Shown piece after piece: positions 17,134 to 54,152 of a DNA stretch of 54,524 nucleotides. Numbering within the stretch: the first letter of the stretch is position 1; each line of letters begins with the position of its first letter. The notes under the pieces are model-generated. The model saw only the letters and a program-made list of their open reading frames with translations, ran no database searches and was not told where the DNA came from. The stretch is from a virus (Duplodnaviria; Caudoviricetes), in the IMG/VR virus record IMGVR_UViG_3300031951_000211, positions 1 through 54,524 of that record. One strand, written 5' to 3'. The translations under genes were made by a program, and so were the position numbers.

Positions 17134-18521
17134 TATGCATTCCAAGGTAAATCAGCACCACTATCAGGCACTGCAACTACTTCTTCACTATTTTTCTTTG
17201 CACGTTTTACCGCTTCTTTAGCAGCAGGTTTGTCCACGCTCTGTGGCGAGATGCGTAGTGTGTCCCAGTCAATCGGGCATGTAAACGCCATTTCCTTGCC
17301 GCCTCGGATCTTAGTGGTTTCAAAAGAAACTGCATTGGTTTCTTTGTCGTGAGCTTCCATTGTAAGTGCGATATCTGCGGCATCCAAAATACCTTTGGCA
17401 AAACGGGCTTCTCCGTCTTTGTCGATCTGATACGGGCTAACCATAACGATCTCGTACTTACGGGCCAAGTTTTTAAGTTTCTTGGAGACTTCAATTTGTG
17501 GTTTCCAATCATACTGATCGTTTCCTTCTAGCACAATTTGGTTTAAGTAGTCAACTACCGCAACCTTTAGCTTGTCACCGAACTTTGCTTTGGCTTTGCC
17601 AATGTGCAAGTCGATACTGCTTAGGGTCAGGTCACGATCGTCAACAATAATCATTTGGTTGTCAGCTTTTAACTGAAAGTTACGTACTAGTGTTTCTTCA
17701 AATTTAAATCTGTCACGATGACGCAAGAACTCGCCAACAGTGTCATCAGCGTTTTCAAACATTCCTGCTCTTGCACGTACCACTCTTAGTACTTCTTCAT
17801 CTGTTAATTTGTGTTGCTTTAGGTTCTGAAGATTAACATTGGCTAAAATAGCCAAGTTACGCTCCATGGTCTCTTTTGCAGTCATTTCAATACTGAAATA
17901 AATACAACTGTTACCAGACTCATATTGATTAATAAAAAGATTGCTACAACTAATAGATTTACCGGAGCCCCGCTTACCCCCAATGAGAATGAGTTCCTGG
18001 CGAGCAACCCCACCAAGAACACTGTCAAAGCTATTATTAAGGCCAAGGTAAACACGTTCGCGCTCCAAGTCTTCAGGATGGCTAAACATCATCATGTCAG
18101 CCATTGTAAACACCTTTTCACTGGTGTGAGTTTTTTCTTCGATTGTTAGCGCAATTGTCGCTAAGTTTTCTTTTATTTCATTTGTGTCGTATAGGGGTAA
18201 TTTATCTACGAACTTATCTAGTAATTTTACCGTTTCACTTTGAGTGTACTGGTCGATTAGTGCGTCCAGTGCAACTTCTGCTGAAACGTCTGGTACCTCG
18301 GTTAACCGGAGAGTTGCCAGTGTTTTTGACGCCGGACCCTCCCTTAAGGTTAGTTCGAGTTCATCGAACGACGGAATAGCGCTGTACTTTTCATAGTACT
18401 TGTTTACCACGCTATACAAGGAAGAATACGCAGGATCTAAAAACACTAACTTGAGTTTGGCCCAGATATCCAGGTTACGTTCTGTTAGTAATTTATTTAA
18501 GACTACTGCTGATGTATCCAA
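17133..18521 (-). CDS. Replicative DnaB-like helicase
   Basis: GGKRGSGKS, FSIEM, VVDYLN. Confidence 0.9.
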   Translation of the reverse strand: MDTSAVVLNKLLTERNLDIWAKLKLVFLDPAYSSLYSVVNKYYEKYSAIPSFDELELTLREGPASKTLATLRLTEVPDVSAEVALDALIDQYTQSETVKLLDKFVDKLPLYDTNEIKENLATIALTIEEKTHTSEKVFTMADMMMFSHPEDLERERVYLGLNNSFDSVLGGVARQELILIGGKRGSGKSISCSNLFINQYESGNSCIYFSIEMTAKETMERNLAILANVNLQNLKQHKLTDEEVLRVVRARAGMFENADDTVGEFLRHRDRFKFEETLVRNFQLKADNQMIIVDDRDLTLSSIDLHIGKAKAKFGDKLKVAVVDYLNQIVLEGNDQYDWKPQIEVSKKLKNLARKYEIVMVSPYQIDKDGEARFAKGILDAADIALTMEAHDKETNAVSFETTKIRGGKEMAFTCPIDWDTLRISPQSVDKPAAKEAVKRAKKNSEEVVAVPDSGADLPWNA

Positions 18522-20473: not shown

Positions 20474-21424
20474 TTAAGCATCAACTTTATGTAAAATGCA
20501 AGGAATGATTTCGCCTGCTCTGATAACGGCAACTGTGTCACCAATTTGCAGGTCTAGCATTTCAATAAAGCCTGGGTTGTTTAGTGTGGCTCGTGATACT
20601 AGAGCATCGCCGATTAGCACAGGCTGTAGGATAGCAACTGGACTTACTTTACCACTCTTGCCGACCTGCCACTCAACACCAAGCAGTTGTGTTTCAACAT
20701 GGGCTGCACGTTCTTTTTTAGCGTAAGCACCACGAGGATGTTTGGCTGTGTAGCCCATTTCATAAAACTGAACATTATCATTAACACGGAACACAACACC
20801 GTCACAAGGAAAGATTTTGTCCAAGTCTGGTTCATTGATTACACCAAAGCCTGCGCTTTTAAGCAGTTCTAAATCTTGGTTAAAGGTGGGGGTTAGAATT
20901 GGCTGAACACCATAAGCAAAGAAGCTGAGTGCTCGTGACCGGAACTCCGCCACATCTTTTAGGTTTAGTGCACCAGCTGCGTAGTTACGAGCGTTTTCAA
21001 TGTTGATTGGAGCAACAATCTCACCAGTAATCTGGTAAATACCGCTAAACGGCACTGTTTGCGGAACAATCGGGTTGCCCAAGAACTTATCAGTTACAAT
21101 TTGACCTTCTACACCATCCCCACGGGTAAGAACTCGAACAAGATTACCGTCAACATAAAGTAAGCTGAGAGCTGCCCCATCCAGCTTAACACTTGTAGCA
21201 ATGCCTCGAATGCCTTGGAGAGGTTGGACTCCTTCATCTTCGTAATACTTTTGTAGTGAGTACATCTGATACAGATGTTTCTCGGTTTTGGAATTTTGCT
21301 TAGCACCCACAGCACCGTAACCCACTGAATCAGCAAGCGCATCAAACTGTGCGTCACTGATAAATGGGCTACCTGCGTAATACGCGGCTGAAGCTGAGTC
21401 GAGATATTGTGTGATTTTGTTCAT
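20474..21424 (-). CDS. NAD-dependent DNA ligase subunit A (adenylation + OB)
   Basis: KLDG, TRGDG, DGVV, WQVGKSG, RATLNN; split ligase as in T5. Confidence 0.93.
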   Translation of the reverse strand: MNKITQYLDSASAAYYAGSPFISDAQFDALADSVGYGAVGAKQNSKTEKHLYQMYSLQKYYEDEGVQPLQGIRGIATSVKLDGAALSLLYVDGNLVRVLTRGDGVEGQIVTDKFLGNPIVPQTVPFSGIYQITGEIVAPINIENARNYAAGALNLKDVAEFRSRALSFFAYGVQPILTPTFNQDLELLKSAGFGVINEPDLDKIFPCDGVVFRVNDNVQFYEMGYTAKHPRGAYAKKERAAHVETQLLGVEWQVGKSGKVSPVAILQPVLIGDALVSRATLNNPGFIEMLDLQIGDTVAVIRAGEIIPCILHKVDA

Positions 21425-21431
21425 AGCAACT

Positions 21432-21460
21432 ATTATAGCAGTTTAGGGTCATTGAATCAA
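21432..21460 (-). promoter_or_regulatory. Ligase promoter with the 13-mer motif in its spacer
   Basis: TTGATT-caatGACCCTAAACTGC-TATAAT. Confidence 0.75.
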
Positions 21461-21466
21461 GTGTAT

Positions 21467-21751
21467 TTATTCAATACCCTTGATCTTGTTGTAATAATGC
21501 TGTATAATTTCTTCACCTTCGGCCTGGGCACAAATATCCAGCATACCATCAATAATGGCTCTCATATTTTCCATAGATGCTGGAATTGAGACACCTTCGC
21601 GACTAGGGACCCACTCACCTTCGTAACTTAAAAAGTATTTACGTAGTTGAATGTACGTAGTTTCACGAAAGTCGTTTACCACTAATCGAACCTGAAAACC
21701 TTTGTCCATGTTTTCTTCGATTAGTTTTTCGTACTGAATATTAGTGTCCAT
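21467..21751 (-). CDS. PC4/p15-like ssDNA-binding protein
   Basis: VNDFRETTYIQLRKYF...GEWVPSREGVSIP. Confidence 0.8.
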   Translation of the reverse strand: MDTNIQYEKLIEENMDKGFQVRLVVNDFRETTYIQLRKYFLSYEGEWVPSREGVSIPASMENMRAIIDGMLDICAQAEGEEIIQHYYNKIKGIE

Positions 21752-25931: not shown

Positions 25932-26080
25932 AAACTATCCATTATTTGCTGTCTTTGCTCTGGAGTGTAGTATTGCCACTCCACTATTTGTTTTAGTGTT
26001 CTGCCACAAGCTACACACTGTTGCAGTTTAGGGTCAAGATTGCACCTTTGGACGCAAGGACTTTCAATCTTCGAACTCAA
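25925..26080 (-). CDS. DUF1289-like small Cys protein
   Basis: SPCVQRCNLD...CVACGRTLKQIVEW; TTG start; not in ORF track. Confidence 0.75.
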   Translation of the reverse strand: MSSKIESPCVQRCNLDPKLQQCVACGRTLKQIVEWQYYTPEQRQQIMDSLR

Positions 26081-27143: not shown

Positions 27144-27353
27144 TTAACTTAACATTTGTGGCACATATCCAGTATCTGGGCCACTAGCACCTGGCTTGCC
27201 TACCATGTTGGCATAATCTGAAACCATGGTAACATAAAGCATTCCGCTTTTGCGTAAAAACTCGCAACATTCCAGTGCATTAGACAAAACACTTATGTCT
27301 TGCCAACCAGCAATGTGCGGCAGTTTAGGGTCGGTGTAATAAACTCGGTACAT
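27144..27353 (-). CDS. Hypothetical protein
   Basis: MYRVYYTDPKL... between tRNAs; the longer ORF-track start overlaps tRNA-Gly. Confidence 0.6.
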   Translation of the reverse strand: MYRVYYTDPKLPHIAGWQDISVLSNALECCEFLRKSGMLYVTMVSDYANMVGKPGASGPDTGYVPQMLS

Positions 27354-28627: not shown

Positions 28628-28707
28628 TTTAATACTCTAGTTAGGATTCAAACCCAGTTCTAGTCTTGTCGATCTGCGCTTCTCACAGTGCTGACCAGAG
28701 TATTAAA
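28628..28707 (-). ncRNA. tRNA-like small RNA with 14-bp closing stem, no CCA
   Basis: TTTAATACTCTGGT/ACTAGAGTATTAAA stem enclosing a T arm (TGGG-TTTGAAT-CCTA). Confidence 0.6.
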
Positions 28708-28711
28708 GTAT

Positions 28712-28900
28712 AGTGCCAGTATTCTGTTACGAGGAACTGGCAGAACCCTAAGCGGCAATTAAGCTGCTAATGCGTAAACTTGATCGTTTGCGTTTATTTT
28801 TGTTTTGCTGCTGCGGCCAGGAATCCCCAACCCTACGGCTTTCACATTGCCGAGTTGTCTGCTATTTTACTCTTTGCCCTGTCGAAACCATGACTGGCCC
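28712..28900 (-). ncRNA. ssrA: tmRNA coding piece (permuted two-piece tmRNA)
   Basis: 5' GGGCCAG-TCATGGTTTCGAC; tag frame 28791-28759 = ANDQVYALAA*; 3' end approximate. Confidence 0.93.
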
Positions 28901-29019
28901 ATTAGGAAACTCTCTGAGGTACTTGAAACCACGGTAACCCATCTTCCTGGCTGGTCCTTGCTCTGTCTAGAATTCGCAAGTATTTCAGTTGTTCCAGTGT
29001 AGTTACTCAGAAAGTTTTC

Positions 29020-29082
29020 TGGTGGACCAGGCGGGAGTCGAACCCGCGTCCAAGACACTTTTCTCGTTGCTTCATACAACCA
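29020..29082 (-). ncRNA. ssrA: tmRNA acceptor piece
   Basis: GGACGCGGGTTCGACTCCCGCCTGGTCCACCA pairs with GGGCCAG to give G3-U70; lies upstream of the coding piece. Confidence 0.93.
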
Positions 29083-29085
29083 TAA

Positions 29086-29346
29086 TTAAATTGCTTCTAT
29101 AGTTTTAGAAACAATTGTTTTACCGTATTTTTCTGCTAAACTTGTAACGTAGTCTAACCACTGTTGTGCACTGGTTTCGTCCTGAAATTCAATAGTTGCA
29201 CTAAAATTAGTGTTATTAATAGTCGGTATACCTGTGGTTTTTTCTATTGCTACTAAACTGTTTAAAAATGCTCTTCTTTCAGAAACAAATTGTTCGTTAT
29301 CGTACAAATCTGACTTTGTAGCCCACTGTACTGTAGTTCTAAACAT
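29086..29346 (-). CDS. Hypothetical protein
   Basis: AT-rich cassette; weak similarity to 29771-30028. Confidence 0.65.
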   Translation of the reverse strand: MFRTTVQWATKSDLYDNEQFVSERRAFLNSLVAIEKTTGIPTINNTNFSATIEFQDETSAQQWLDYVTSLAEKYGKTIVSKTIEAI

Positions 29347-49684: not shown

Positions 49685-49748
49685 AAAAAATACACCTTGC
49701 TTTCTTCCAAAAAGTATGCTATAATTTAATATAACTTCTAGAGAGTTA

Positions 49749-49872
49749 AGATTGTAGTTATAGTGATAAATTCACTAAATGCGGTAGCTTGAAACTTAGG
49801 AGCCCTGTCGACGTTAGGTTTCAACGGCTGCTGCAATTTAGGGTCAATTTATCTAGTATAACTAAACAATCT
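49749..49872 (+). ncRNA. Long imperfect hairpin RNA candidate
   Basis: AGATTGT..AGTTATA..GATAAATT..CTAAAT..GCGGTAGC..TTGAAACTTA pairs segment-wise with its mirror; promoter about 49697-49725. Confidence 0.55.
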
Positions 49873-50013
49873 CGCATTGCTGATTGGGGCAACTTTTTTG
49901 TTTTTTATTGCTTTGTGTATTTGTTATGTACCAAAGCAATTTTTGTGGGTTGAGTATTCGTCCCACCTTTTCCACCCGACACGGTTCGGGATTTTTTATT
50001 TTTAGGCGTTATT

Positions 50014-50826
50014 ATGTCATTTTTAAATCGCTACACAGGAGTAGTGTTAACAAAGCAGGATATTTCAGCATATCCTTTTGAAGAGTTCGCGGAAGCCACC
50101 TTAGAACAACTAGAAGAAGTTGCACAGCGTCAACGGATTCCACAGTATAATTCGTGGATGATGCCACAAATGCTTGCTAAGTTCGGCAGCTTTAAGCCAG
50201 TGTGGAAGGATTCAAAGATTGATGCAGCACAAACACTTATGCAGAATTTGGGTTCCGACCCTAAACTGCGCGGTATGTACTTGGTAGCCACAAAACTTTC
50301 ACGTGGTCAGCTAATCCAAAAACAAAGCTCGCCACAAGGTGCTCACTATGGAGCACTAGTACCGCTTGTGTTGGCAGCCTTTAAAAAGTACCAGAACATT
50401 CCTTATAGTTCATGGAGTCGTGACGATATCAAGTATGTTGTAGACAAAAATCTAGCACAAGCCATGATGCTAACAGAAGTTCCACAACTATCACTAGAAC
50501 GACTACTAGAAATTCGTGAGATTGGTTTAACAGCCAAAAGTGGTCGAACTGAGGGTCAGACCAAGAACCCGCTTTCAACATGGTCCCTGACTGGTATCCA
50601 AGATACCGAATTGGGTCACCTGCCTAAGCTGGCGGTCACAATGCTTACACAAATTTGGTTAGCACACCCAACCATTCGCAACGAATATATGGTACTAGAC
50701 CCTGTTAATTGGGACAATGTTCCACAGCCGCTAGTATCCAACGATATTTTTAAGCCGGCAGCACCAGTTGCGCCAGTTAAGACTCCAACAAAGCAAGACA
50801 ACAGTTACTTGCCTTGGGAGGTTTAA
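50014..50826 (+). CDS. Conserved T5-like early protein
   Basis: YGALVPLVLAAFKKYQNIPY..W, MLTQIWLA. Confidence 0.7.
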   Translation: MSFLNRYTGVVLTKQDISAYPFEEFAEATLEQLEEVAQRQRIPQYNSWMMPQMLAKFGSFKPVWKDSKIDAAQTLMQNLGSDPKLRGMYLVATKLSRGQLIQKQSSPQGAHYGALVPLVLAAFKKYQNIPYSSWSRDDIKYVVDKNLAQAMMLTEVPQLSLERLLEIREIGLTAKSGRTEGQTKNPLSTWSLTGIQDTELGHLPKLAVTMLTQIWLAHPTIRNEYMVLDPVNWDNVPQPLVSNDIFKPAAPVAPVKTPTKQDNSYLPWEV

Positions 50827-50827
50827 A

Positions 50828-51154
50828 ATGCGTTATACCAAAGAAATTTGTGACCACATGGTCCAACAGTACACTGCAGGTGTTTCGGTGCCGGACCTAG
50901 CTTTAGAGCTTGACGTGCCAGAGCGGAGCGTAATTGCCAAGCTGAGCAGCCTCGGGGTGTACCAAAAAAAGTCATATGTCAACAAGCGCGGTGAAATTCC
51001 AGTTAAAAAGTCAGAGCACATCGAACGAATTGCACATTTGCTCAACACCAACCTAGAATTGCTGGAATCGCTGGAAAAGGTGAACAAAACAGTGCTGGTA
51101 ATGATTGAGCGTGCTTTATCTGACCCTAAATCGACACAATCGGACAAAATTTGA
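50828..51154 (+). CDS. T5 A2-like DNA-binding protein (paralog 1)
   Basis: YT.E...Y.AG.SV..LA..L....RSVIAKLS..GVY...ESLEKVNK. Confidence 0.75.
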   Translation: MRYTKEICDHMVQQYTAGVSVPDLALELDVPERSVIAKLSSLGVYQKKSYVNKRGEIPVKKSEHIERIAHLLNTNLELLESLEKVNKTVLVMIERALSDPKSTQSDKI

Positions 51155-51176
51155 CTTAATTTTTGTTAAATGCAGC

Positions 51177-51211
51177 AAAGCCCCACTATCTTCGGATAAT
51201 GGGGCTTTTTT
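51177..51211 (+). terminator. Intrinsic terminator
   Basis: AAAGCCCCA...TGGGGCTTTTTT. Confidence 0.85.
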
Positions 51212-51259
51212 ATTGCCTCGAATTTGCCACGGCTTAGGGTCAGATAAGTGAATATCCAC

Positions 51260-51298
51260 TTGACAGGATAGGTTACCCACTGGTATAATTTGGCGCAG
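51260..51298 (+). promoter_or_regulatory. ORF-less sigma70 promoter + TTGGCGCAG (copy 1 of 4)
   Basis: TTGACA-18-TATAAT-TTGGCGCAG; also 53087, 53363, 54418. Confidence 0.7.
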
Positions 51299-51327
51299 AC
51301 TGGGCAACACAAGTTAGGCAACCAAAA

Positions 51328-51365
51328 CAAAAGCCCCTGGCAGGGCGACTGCGCAGGGGCTTTTG
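51328..51365. terminator. Bidirectional terminator closing the large ncRNA
   Basis: CAAAAGCCCCTG...CAGGGGCTTTTG. Confidence 0.8.
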
Positions 51366-51904
51366 AACTCTCGAGGTTTTTTACTCTGTTCAGGAACATT
51401 ACTGCGGAGTAACCAACTCCGACTCTTACTACCTGACCCTAAAGTATAGCAGTCGTGCCTGGTGTTGTGGTTAATTCCAGAGTACGCTTGTCTTTTGTGG
51501 GGAGTTTGGGTTGCACGTTTCAGTCCTGGGTGCGTCTCGGGCATTGTCCAGGATATCCGTGACTTACAGTATTGGTTCGGGTCTTCACCCCACCACATTT
51601 TTTGCGACTTTGGGCTTTGTCGGCTTACGGGTCCACCGCTTAGCAACCTCACATAATTTTTAATGACCCTTGTGTGGTTTGGGGTCGTGCTTTGTTACGG
51701 TTGGCTCCGACTAGATAATTTTACGAACCCTCTGCAGTTTAGGGTCGAACAACCTTACGGGTTGTTATTGCTCGGGCACTATATAGTCCGCCACACTAGC
51801 TATTTATAAGACCTTTTAACGTGGGTACAGGATAAGACGACATGGGATATAGGGACGGTTCCCTAGCATTACTCATTTCCAGAACAAGTCTGGGTTTTCA
51901 TCCT
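51365..51904 (-). ncRNA. Large structured ncRNA candidate (about 540 nt) downstream of the hammerhead cut
   Basis: No credible ORF, many hairpins, bounded by ribozyme site and terminator. Confidence 0.55.
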
Positions 51905-52001
51905 GACCCTAAACTGCGCCAGCGAGCGATTTGGGAAGATCGCTGCAAACTGTTGCTGAGGTTTAAGGTTTCGCACAACTTGCATGTGCTCATCAGAGGG
52001 T
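51878..52001 (-). ncRNA. Type I hammerhead ribozyme
   Basis: CCT-CTGATGA-GCACA-TGCAAGT-TGTGC-GAAA-CCTTAAAC...GTTTAGG-GTC^AGG; loop II GCAAGT complementary to ACTTGT (51884-51889). Confidence 0.85.
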
Positions 52002-52076
52002 TGGTACTCCCGAACGGTTTCGATCCGTCTTTTCCGCCTTGAAAGGGCAGCGTCCTAGCCAGTAGACGACGGGAGC
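52002..52076 (-). tRNA. tRNA-Glu (TTC)
   Basis: Cloverleaf, CCA; isolated from the main cluster. Confidence 0.92.
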
Positions 52077-52265
52077 ATGTAAGTTGGCTGGTGGTAGAGG
52101 CCTTCGCCACCAATTAAGTTGTTATCCAGATGCGCACAGAGCTGGTCTCATAACACCGAATTCTTTAGGGCTGTGGCTCGGTGATTTCCCACAATTAAGA
52201 CGGTATCACATAGCAGTAATATATCGCTGTGTCCGCTGTCACCCAATCTATTAATTTATATAAGT

Positions 52266-52294
52266 ATTATACAGTAATCAAGGAAAAGAATCAA
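52266..52294 (-). promoter_or_regulatory. Promoter of the tRNA-Glu/hammerhead transcript
   Basis: TTGATT-17-TATAAT. Confidence 0.75.
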
Positions 52295-52446
52295 CAAAGA
52301 AATTCCAATCGTTTCCCATAGACTAGCTTCGCAGGTGAGACGTCATTCAGTGACTGGTTAGTGGTTGCGGCTGCTTGGGCAGAACTGGCACCGGTTGAGT
52401 AATCACACGGTATTCATTAAGCCATTCCCGATTGGGGTTCTTTGTT
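52293..52446 (-). ncRNA. Candidate ncRNA of about 155 nt
   Basis: Closing stem AACAAAGAA..CCAATCG/CGATTGG..TTCTTTGTT; own promoter 52462-52490. Confidence 0.55.
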
Positions 52447-52521
52447 AATTTCTAAGATATTATTATATCAAAAGTGGATTGAGGCATCAAGTTAAAATTT
52501 CTTGACCCTCAACCGTGGCAG

Positions 52522-52833
52522 TCAGGCCAGTTCGGCAACAAGTCGTTCCAAGACTTCGTGGTTGGCTTTTTCCAGAGATTCAAACACTTCTGGAGCCACA
52601 CCGCAAGCGTGTGCCAGTTTGTCAACCAGCTCAGACTTTTTCACACGAGCCACACCGACCTGGCGGGTCTTGGCCACGTACACGCCTTCGCGCGACAGCT
52701 TAGCCACAACCGACCTGACAGTTTTGCCCAGGGTCTCGGCGAGTTGTTCCACGGTCTTACCCGACTGGTAGCCAGTAACGAGTTCAACAGTTTGTTCAGG
52801 GGTGTAATTTTGAGTGGTTGCTTTAGTCATCAT
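52522..52833 (-). CDS. T5 A2-like DNA-binding protein (paralog 2)
   Basis: NYTPEQT...LGKTVRSVVAKLSREGVYVAK...ESLEKAN. Confidence 0.8.
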   Translation of the reverse strand: MMTKATTQNYTPEQTVELVTGYQSGKTVEQLAETLGKTVRSVVAKLSREGVYVAKTRQVGVARVKKSELVDKLAHACGVAPEVFESLEKANHEVLERLVAELA

Positions 52834-53787: not shown

Positions 53788-54120
53788 TCAAATTGGCTTT
53801 GAATTTGCCAATGCAGAGAAAATCTTTTCCAATGCTGTTTTATTAGCTTTTGTAAGACTTTCGATTTCAGCTTCAGTCATTTTGAGAATCGCACCGATTG
53901 CATCGGCATGGGCATCCTTTTTAACTACTGGAGCGCCAGTTTTTGAAACGTAAGTTTTAGCCACATACACTTTTTCACGGCTAAGTTTTGCAACAACCGA
54001 ACGAACAGTTTTGCCCAAATTTTGGGCAATGGTTTCAACTGCAACACCAGCCTGATAATCGGCCACCATTTTGGTGGTTTGCTCTGCGGTATAATTTACC
54101 GCTTTAGTAGTCTTTTCCAT
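53788..54120 (-). CDS. T5 A2-like DNA-binding protein (paralog 3)
   Basis: NYTAEQT...LGKTVRSVVAKLSREKVYVAK...ESLTKANK. Confidence 0.8.
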   Translation of the reverse strand: MEKTTKAVNYTAEQTTKMVADYQAGVAVETIAQNLGKTVRSVVAKLSREKVYVAKTYVSKTGAPVVKKDAHADAIGAILKMTEAEIESLTKANKTALEKIFSALANSKPI

Positions 54121-54152
54121 TTTGATTTCCTTCACGTTAAAAAACAATTATA

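Follow-up and report, generated by a model that had tools for sequence, protein, structure and literature searches.

A hammerhead ribozyme family missed by Rfam models and the structured noncoding RNA that it probably releases in a group of freshwater phages

A 54,524-nt stretch of DNA from a tailed virus (Duplodnaviria; Caudoviricetes; IMG/VR record IMGVR_UViG_3300031951_000211, positions 1 to 54,524) carries on its minus strand, shortly after a tRNA-Glu gene, what looks like a hammerhead ribozyme, and the sequence at its cleavage site recurs exactly 470 nt downstream. Is this ribozyme genuine, and what would its cut release? A sequence-only reading of the locus had proposed that one ribozyme core cuts both copies, releasing a 470-nt RNA that could be ligated into a circle. 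We refer to the whole stretch, a 54.5-kb piece of an uncultivated virus record, as the window, and to the second copy of the cleavage-site sequence as site 2. Comparison of 42 sequences and the limits of assembled RNA contigs indicate that the hammerhead is genuine and very probably active. We put at about three in four the probability that a single self-cut, predicted at 51905/51904, frees a stable, structured noncoding RNA of ~575 nt. Site 2 is not a ribozyme substrate; it is a structural copy of a genome-wide motif.

The minus strand from 52294 to ~51328 is one conserved noncoding transcription unit, comprising in order a promoter, a leader of ~180 nt, a tRNA-Glu inserted in this lineage, a type I hammerhead, a structured RNA of ~575 nt and a terminator (Table 1). 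The promoter, tRNA-Glu, hammerhead, terminator and pair of 12-mers all lie where the sequence-only reading had placed them, on the minus strand. Five nucleotides (ACCCU) separate the tRNA CCA from the hammerhead CUGAUGA (51996-51990); GAAA follows at 51972-51969 and GUC at 51907-51905, with C17 at 51905. Stem II, closed by G10.1-C11.1, pairs GCACA with UGUGC (51989-51985 with 51977-51973). Stem III, of 9 bp (51969-51961 with 51914-51906), includes A15.1-U16.1 (A51969-U51906) and one G.U pair and encloses a 46-nt insertion. Stem I is formed by CCU 51999-51997 and AGG 51904-51902. The expected C3-U4-G5-A6-N7-G8-A9 and G12-A13-A14 and a cleavage triplet N-U-H are all present. Eleven core nucleotides agree with the hammerhead consensus, and the same core is found in all 42 family sequences, an invariance partly fixed by the search patterns described below. 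The minimum free energy fold of the region yields stems II and III, and its folding energy compared with shuffles (z = -0.48) is uninformative alone. The bare pattern CTGATGA..GAAA was found twice in the window with 0.95 expected, which is not significant. The case for the ribozyme therefore rests on its relatives.

Relatives were sought by synteny and by pattern. A synteny search using a neighbouring 270-aa protein gave six loci, five of which have the same core at the same place, including relatives with only 34% protein identity. A pattern scan of viral contigs gave 39 loci with 34 distinct sequences, and a second scan, without the fixed cleavage-site strand, gave further members, including L064, L106, L152 and L112 (L numbers label the loci). 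Because CTGATGAG and CGAAAC were set by the patterns, as was TTAGGGTCAGG in the first scan only, invariance in these segments is by construction; the first scan left the CCU of stem I free, and likewise stem II (beyond G...C) and the distal part of stem III. For the covariation analysis, 42 distinct viral and metagenomic sequences were aligned to a covariance model.

In stem II 97.8% of the cells of this alignment are paired and four of the five pairs have changed on both sides (variants AU 13, UA 13, CG 7; and GC 14, CG 13, UA 5, AU 2). In stem III 84.7% are paired, with double-sided changes in four of the nine pairs, and in L064, L106, L152 and L112 the covariation reaches inside the cleavage-site strand itself. 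The covariation score is 0.225 versus 0.103 for shuffled alignments, and none of 500 shuffles reaches it. Sliding the partners by one column lowers pairing to 44.5% (stem II) and 39.1% (stem III), and a MAFFT alignment gives the same picture as the covariance-model alignment. Covariation in related phages, the check that the sequence-only reading had asked of its ribozyme, is thus found in stems II and III. The CCU/AGG of stem I is invariant in 42/42 sequences; its CCU was outside the first search pattern, yet is invariant in all 34 sequences from that scan.

Our own covariance model (R1) scores the window ribozyme at 99.4 bits, the sole strong match in the window. The only other match there, at 17535-17640 (10.6 bits, E 0.46), is without the core, and the model finds no further core, either close to site 2 or in the rest of the window. 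A relaxed pattern run over 596 Gb of prokaryotic genomes gave ten matches; nine are without stem II and have zero model score, and the tenth, on a 1-kb contig of a metagenome-assembled genome, is a true member at 103.9 bits. Apart from that contig, the scan yielded no host or prophage copy.

Long forms of the ribozyme locus, with homologous RNA after the cut, make up 27 of 35 distinct loci, and in the 23 with complete downstream sequence this RNA measures 371-720 nt. The other eight are short forms without the long RNA, six of them having a terminator hairpin within ~45 nt of the ribozyme. The stem III insertion is 42-55 nt in long forms and 31-32 nt in short forms; stem I ranges from 3 to 6 bp across the family and is 5-6 bp in short forms. 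In the distant relatives L005, L006, L007, L009, L015 and L019 (e.g. L006 7240-7370, minus strand) the hammerhead stands just before the terminator of a ~420-nt RNA, where a cut would trim the terminator hairpin and not free a downstream RNA. The scans also brought up another abundant type I hammerhead family (L059, L065, L070, L074, L081 and ~20 further loci), on viral contigs of 100-280 kb, with stem II GUCUU/AAGAC, a short-hairpin stem III and a common CCU/AGG stem I start.

Natural expression data come from public sequencing runs. Of 22 runs listed, 20 contain all or some of the stretch, with at least half of it in 14 runs. RNA libraries account for six, and five of these contain 35-45% of the words of the stretch. 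Four RNA runs, from four studies, were mapped as contigs onto 51000-52500. In every one, contigs 100% identical to the window cover nearly the whole segment between the predicted cut and the terminator (51360-51874; 51368-51888; 51370-51885; and 51375-51710 with 51681-51872). Cover is zero at 51000-51359 and 51889-52500, flanks that take in the convergent gene as well as leader, tRNA and ribozyme. The upper ends of the contigs (51872-51888) lie 16-32 nt below the predicted cut at 51904, and the lower boundary is at the terminator foot; joints and loose ends were absent from all four runs. The silent flanks disfavour carry-over of DNA, and the missing contig cover upstream of 51889 alone proves nothing. 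The contig pattern, on which the four independent studies agree, matches what is predicted for a single cut at 51905/51904.

Homologues of the RNA so delimited occur in 22 relatives and share conserved blocks and covarying helices with it. Compensatory hairpin changes can be read directly from the alignments (UAGGGA/UCCCUA versus UAGUGA/UUACUA; CGUC/GACG versus CGCC/GGCG and CGUG/CACG). RNAalifold, applied to 19 long RNAs, predicts 22 pairs, ten of them with compensatory changes; the MAFFT alignment of these RNAs (1216 columns) is too gappy for a full structure. Hairpin modules of the form GACCC..GGGUY occur twice in the window, both within the long RNA, and no tandem repeats were found in it. 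The sequence-only reading had described this segment as free of open reading frames. In the literal sense this does not hold, as a 112-aa frame with a GTG start occupies 51314-51652, but the frame is not conserved: the longest sense frames of the 22 relatives measure 31-85 aa and fall in other places and frames, and no conserved frame was found among them. The first bases after the cut (51901-51890 and homologues), AGGA(C/U)GAAA(A/C)CCC, are near-invariant in long forms. They resemble the CGAAAC-CC segment of the ribozyme itself, and RNAalifold pairs their CCC with a GGG of site 2, without covariation.

What, then, is the second copy of the cleavage-site sequence? The 12-mer TTTAGGGTCAGG occurs exactly twice in the window, at 51902-51913 and 51432-51443. 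The exact pair 470 nt apart described in the sequence-only reading thus stands, but it is not just a pair, as three more copies have one mismatch: five copies with at most one mismatch are found versus 0.21 expected, a number reached in none of 100 shuffles. If one core did cut both UUUAGGGUC^AGG copies (51905/51904 and 51435/51434; ^ marks the cut), a 470-nt RNA would be released for ligation into a circle. Besides the exact duplication, two observations fit that proposal. A box copy lies inside the transcript 396-603 nt below the cut in 20 of the 23 long forms, with AGG next in 15 of the 20, and in the window the core arm could pair with site 2 over 8 bp + 3 bp.

The relatives point the other way. 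In 20/20 relatives a strand 20-40 nt downstream of site 2 pairs with its U16.1-C17 together with the three bases that follow, a count anchored on the alignment because a naive search for 5-mer partners is too noisy. In the window the pairing is between UCAGG 51436-51432 and CCUGA 51394-51390, ~40 nt downstream. The helix varies as UCAGG/CCUGA, UCAAG/CUUGA, CAACG/CGUUG, CGAUG/CGUCG and UCAG/CUGA. Five of the 20 relatives are without AGG at site 2 (AAG, AACG, GAUG or AGC instead); there the downstream strand compensates and the CCU of the ribozyme is unchanged. Because the helix changes as a unit and CCU does not follow, AGG at site 2 is held by the local helix. In four relatives (L064, L106, L152 and L112) site 1, the cleavage-site strand of the ribozyme, has drifted to UGUGGGUC, UGGGGGUC, UGAGGGUC and UUUGGGGUC, and the 5' arm of stem III is matched to it (ACUCACAGU, ACUCCCAGA, ACUCUCAGU and ACCCCUU). 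Site 2 is canonical in the same four and mismatches the arm, with 4-5 bp left; L064 and L152 are also without AGG.

Three further facts speak against double cutting. The RNA contigs of all four runs cross 51435/51434, with 60-75 nt beyond, and none shows a joint or back-join, although rare forms can escape contig assembly. Once the first cut has been made, the arm is still held in its own 9-bp hairpin. The motif also occurs outside the transcript, beyond the terminator, as well as genome-wide and in a ribozyme-less relative. We therefore judge the release of a 470-nt RNA by two cuts, and its circularisation, extremely unlikely. The sequence-only reading had held that cleavage at the first site alone, together with lack of conservation of the second 12-mer in relatives, would refute excision and circularisation; the 12-mer is conserved, though for structural reasons. 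In many relatives the 5' flank of site 2 covaries with a complementary strand 200-320 nt upstream, an anti-box (ATCGTG/CACGGT, ACTGTG/TACAGT, GTCGTA/TACGAT, GTCGTT/AGCGGT); the extension reaches 5-6 of 6 positions in nine of 20 relatives and only one in the window. This suggests a long-range helix in the mature RNA, one that would not be universal.

The duplicated motif is part of a 13-mer, GCAGTTTAGGGTC, here called the box, of which the window has 13 copies with at most two mismatches versus 1.4 expected, about a ten-fold excess; its 8-mer core has 18 copies versus 1.1 expected. The copies show a strong strand bias. The nine between 8 and 41 kb are all on the plus strand, while open reading frames of at least 250 aa and tRNA genes in that interval, where present, are on the minus strand. 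The densest cluster in the window, five copies in ~800 bp (51119-51912), is at the ribozyme locus. Three complete relatives with the ribozyme have 13-25 copies, versus 1 for controls, and a ribozyme-less relative has 6, versus 2 for its control. One copy exactly fills the 17-nt spacer of a promoter, TTGATT-17-TATAAT (21430-21470, minus strand), before a gene starting at 21424, and this points to a DNA operator. Three paralogous small D5-like proteins encoded around the unit (Table 1) are candidate box binders. The box may serve as DNA operator for these neighbouring proteins or as a pairing element at the RNA level. A search of open-access text for the box sequence returned only unrelated primer and small interfering RNA papers.

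With so many copies, the ribozyme might act in trans on UUAGGGUC^N sites, or the released RNA might pair with GACCCUAAACUGC boxes in phage transcripts. The excess of boxes in the window and in the three ribozyme-bearing relatives fits this idea, as does our reading of gene orientation, by which 13 of the 18 8-mer copies are transcribed as the complement of the substrate strand. We nevertheless regard trans action of this kind as very unlikely: the ribozyme-less relative keeps its boxes, the copy in the promoter spacer points to DNA, the ribozyme arm is closed by its own hairpin, and sense-orientation copies elsewhere are without AGG.

Several observations count against the release of a long RNA by an active hammerhead, and the first concerns recognition by existing models. 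The only Rfam hammerhead match in the locus is to Hammerhead_3, at 15.7 bits versus a gathering score of 48.5 (E = 5.8), and in a different register. In the loci of 11 relatives Rfam gave no hammerhead or other credible family at E up to 1. At the gathering threshold the whole window returned tRNAs and the transfer-messenger RNA (tmRNA) only, and at E up to 10 over 51100-52500 there was no credible family for the leader, ribozyme or long RNA. The Rfam search, with thresholds applied to the window and E-values to 51100-52500, thus brought neither the hammerhead nor the match to a GOLLD or ROOL model for which the sequence-only reading had suggested looking. The hammerhead models probably fail because stem III carries a long insertion and stem I is short and open.

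Stem I itself is the second point. In the window it stops after 3 bp, where C.A takes the place of a fourth pair; of the 42 sequences, 21 have UA there, 2 have CG and 19, the window among them, have a non-standard combination. No conserved tertiary contact for stem I was found in the relatives. The 6-bp contact between loop II and a downstream loop noted in the sequence-only reading exists in the window but is not kept elsewhere: the best duplex in relatives averages 4.1 bp, versus 4.5 bp in cross-locus controls, and a kissing loop or pseudoknot of loop II was rejected as a family feature. Fast hammerhead cleavage at physiological Mg2+ calls for a stem I of sufficient length and for a tertiary contact of stem I with loop II or a pseudoknot. 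Because of the 3-bp stem I and the lack of a conserved tertiary contact, the ribozyme could be slow or need a partner. Furthermore, the fold of the single long RNA is no better than shuffles (z = -1.28). RNA contigs give no exact ends and can miss rare forms, and their coincident stops are a weak hint. One relative, L004 (7300-7930, minus strand), has the leader block and a terminated noncoding RNA, with no hammerhead and no sense-orientation box; the ribozyme is therefore dispensable in some lineages.

Another reading, with which the Rfam failures accord, is that there is no ribozyme activity, the conserved pattern reflecting operator or iteron boxes at the DNA level and the RNA end being set by a host RNase or a separate promoter. 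The densest box cluster lies at this locus, flanked by genes for D5-like DNA-binding proteins, which accords with such an account. It leaves the double-sided changes in stems II and III unexplained at the DNA level, the eleven core nucleotides fit the consensus, and no further promoter-like site was found on the minus strand from 52266 to 51905. We rate this account as low as the two-cut proposal.

A last point against a simple release is that the cleavage-site strand has a perfect 13-nt complement 158 nt downstream, the anti-box, which could compete with stem III. Cleavage might then be a regulated switch, in which the strand 51917-51905 pairs either with the ribozyme arm (active) or with the anti-box 51746-51734 (inactive, 13 bp) and release of the long RNA depends on transcription speed or on a box-binding factor. 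The complementarity is perfect in the window, it extends 5-6 nt beyond the 8-mer in L002, L025 and L029, and in L006 the partner lies upstream; equivalent anti-boxes of relatives lie 160-320 nt below the cut. Regulated cleavage of phage hammerheads has been raised before (Perreault et al. 2011, PMC3088659). However, complementarity is built into every box/anti-box pair, each member being a copy of the same 13-mer. The largest subgroup (L012, L013, L016 and others) differs in the 5' flank of site 1, which shows zero extension to any anti-box where site 2 extends by up to 6, and uncut precursor is absent from the RNA contigs. A switch thus seems improbable, if less so than trans action. The anti-box of the window also closes a local hairpin with GGGUU 51730-51726.

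We return to the single cut as the preferred reading. The hammerhead would fold co-transcriptionally, with stem II closed, stem III closed around its 46-nt insertion and stem I open at 3 bp, and would cut once after GUC. The 5' product would be the leader, tRNA precursor and ribozyme, with a 2',3'-cyclic phosphate end, to be further processed or degraded. The 3' product would be the ~575-nt RNA with a 5'-OH end, stable and abundant enough to accumulate. The 5' end is probably made by the ribozyme and not by a host nuclease. An RNA with a 5'-OH end escapes the decay by RNase E that a 5'-monophosphate stimulates, and the 5'-OH may here aid persistence of the RNA. Within the released RNA, site 2, another copy of the 13-nt box GCAGUUUAGGGUC, would serve as a helix strand and not as a second substrate: its 5' part can pair with the GACCCUAAA anti-box and its 3' part, UCAGG, with the CCUGA that lies 40 nt further down. 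Pairing of the cleavage-site strand with 51746-51734, the 13-bp competitor of stem III, may modulate cleavage or may be a by-product of the box copies. Stem III can itself be seen as one box and anti-box pair put to use.

Our leading guess for the function of the released RNA is a decoy or regulator, binding protein or RNA and built around the box. A bolder proposal, which we think unlikely, is that the RNA founds an undescribed class of large phage RNAs made of hairpin modules with the box GCAGUUUAGGGUC and its complement, acting in trans through the boxes, with the ribozyme built from a box/anti-box pair. The phage scatters the box through promoters, the tRNA/tmRNA region and mRNAs, and the action in trans would be as a decoy for a box-binding regulator (e.g. 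the D5-like proteins) or by pairing with box-bearing transcripts.

Table 1. Positions in the window of the ribozyme unit, its parts and the associated boxes and genes
Feature	Position	Strand	Basis
Sigma-70-type promoter TTGATT-17-TATAAT	52294-52266	-	10/12 consensus positions
Conserved leader RNA	52077..52259	-	Invariant 14-mer block GUCUUAAUUGUGGG at 52201-52188
tRNA-Glu(UUC)	52076-52002	-	ARAGORN; Rfam tRNA 49 bits
Type I hammerhead ribozyme	51893..52006	-	Core sequence, own covariance model, covariation
Predicted self-cleavage site GUC^A	51905/51904	-	From hammerhead consensus
Released noncoding RNA (probable), ~575 nt, cut to terminator	51328..51904	-	RNA contigs, 22 homologous relatives
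Anti-box GACCCUAAACUGC	51734..51746	-	13/13 complement of cleavage-site strand 51917-51905 (inverted repeat I3)
Site 2, second copy of UUUAGGGUCAGG, structural element	51432..51443	-	Local helix, bridging RNA contigs, drifted relatives
Conserved hairpin after site 2	51390..51436	-	Outer UCAGG/CCUGA, inner CGGAGU/ACUCCG (51421-51416 with 51410-51405), apical loop UGGUU
Intrinsic terminator hairpin, A-run and U-run on both sides, bidirectional in form	51328..51365	.	Hairpin and inverted repeat I5
13-mer box, example places	21438-21450, 26023-26035, 27320-27332, 50257-50269, 51734-51746, 51905-51917		
Two boxes outside transcript, flanking terminator of convergent gene	51130-51119 (-); 51234-51243 (+)		Same places in L002-L007
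Three paralogous small proteins flanking the unit	50768-51154 (+), 52522-52833 (-), 53788-54147 (-)		PHROG 'D5-like transcriptional regulator'/'DNA binding protein'; weak GcrA-like Pfam

The other parts of the unit are conserved to different degrees. Of 26 relatives examined, 24 have a comparable promoter, with at least 10/12 matching positions, 134-545 nt before the core. The 14-mer of the leader is exact in 22 of 156 loci, among them the hammerhead-less L004, and the leader has no cover in the metatranscriptome contigs. The terminator flanks UUCAAAAGCCCC and GGGGCUUUUGUUUUG are near-unchanged across 23 aligned downstream RNAs, a few rows having 1-2 substitutions. A tRNA-Glu stands upstream of the ribozyme in only five of the 35 distinct loci (100 nt from the core in three of those), and is therefore an optional, incidental passenger of the leader. 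The link between tRNA and ribozyme noted in the sequence-only reading is therefore present in the window but not general. A role in processing the tRNA 3' end, like that of theta ribozymes, was rejected, as the predicted cut falls 97 nt past CCA and so does not abut the tRNA end, and most loci have no tRNA.

The source is a phage of ~100 kb with T5-like replication and regulator genes. The window encodes a family A DNA polymerase, ribonucleotide reductase, an SbcC-like protein and the small D5-like DNA-binding proteins, along with 25 tRNA genes and a permuted tmRNA (ARAGORN, Rfam), and complete relatives measure ~98-102 kb with direct terminal repeats. A blastn search of the locus against the GenBank phage collection gave only tRNA matches and no close named relatives. 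The permuted two-piece tmRNA (28668-29122, minus strand; tag ANDQVYALAA) is inside a 14-kb cluster of 25 tRNA genes; tRNA-Glu is missing from that cluster and is located in the ribozyme unit instead.

Two other plus-strand promoters deserve mention. At 51260-51289 there is a perfect consensus promoter, TTGACA-18-TATAAT with extended -10 TG, aimed into the terminator of the long RNA and kept in L002-L004, L006 and L007; it would yield a ~70-nt transcript or an antisense to the long RNA, and has no RNA contig cover. At 49697-49900 a promoter TTGCTT-17-TATAAT is followed by ~170 nt without an open reading frame, then by a hairpin and a U-run, possibly another small RNA; this unit carries a sense-orientation box copy at 49833-49845.

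The hammerhead family described here is well supported, comes with natural expression data and goes undetected by current Rfam models; it therefore reveals a blind spot for hammerheads with a long stem III insertion and a minimal stem I. The results suggest a concrete job for a phage hammerhead, the release of a stable, structured noncoding RNA from the leader and tRNA that precede it. They also draw attention, in a widespread group of ~100-kb freshwater phages, to two puzzling elements, a conserved RNA of ~550 nt seen in metatranscriptomes and a 13-nt box over-represented about ten-fold, which supplies the substrate strand of the ribozyme and recurs in promoters and noncoding regions. The attractive claim of a self-excising circular phage RNA is removed as unsupported.

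Phage hammerheads are known, and a role in processing long phage transcripts has been proposed for them; circular or spliced products were sought and not found (Perreault et al. 2011, PMC3088659). Like the phage and prophage hammerheads presented there, the window ribozyme has the canonical core (CUGAUGA, GAAA, GUC), a three-way junction and a phage setting, and other viral contigs commonly have its CCU/AGG type I layout too. Unlike them, the present family has a stem III insertion of 42-55 nt (long) or 31-32 nt (short), a stem I of 3-6 bp and no conserved loop-loop contact, and is missed by all Rfam hammerhead models; it parts two conserved noncoding RNAs and not protein genes, and its substrate strand is a copy of a genome-wide box. 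The theta ribozymes, which are like that of hepatitis delta virus (HDV), offer another parallel, a small self-cleaving ribozyme directly 3' of a phage tRNA in the same transcript (Kienbeck et al. 2024, PMC10879173). They belong to another class and, in the main text of that paper, where the word hammerhead is absent, cut at the tRNA 3' end, whereas here the predicted cut would leave the ribozyme on the tRNA trailer. Open-access full text, searched without supplements, held no account of this hammerhead family, long RNA or box, and an earlier listing is possible; greater novelty may lie in the released RNA and the box.

The locus shares with retrozymes and viroids a hammerhead and, on either side of a noncoding segment some hundreds of nucleotides long, repeats of the cleavage-site sequence. 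In those RNAs, and in viroid-like RNAs, hammerhead cleavage gives ligatable ends. Here, unlike there, a single core takes the place of one per site, the second site is unmatched by the core in relatives, RNA contigs cross that site with no junction, and the unit is encoded once in a double-stranded DNA phage. GOLLD and ROOL are large structured phage-associated RNAs of several hundred nucleotides that adjoin tRNA genes. Identity with either was rejected, as neither the search at E up to 10 over 51100-52500 nor that at the gathering threshold in the window gave a match; their models were presumably among the Rfam families searched. Like GOLLD and ROOL, the released RNA is phage-encoded beside a tRNA, has conserved blocks and covarying helices with no conserved open reading frame, and assembles from metatranscriptomes. 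It differs from them in having a 5' end made by a predicted hammerhead and in being built around copies of a genome-wide box.

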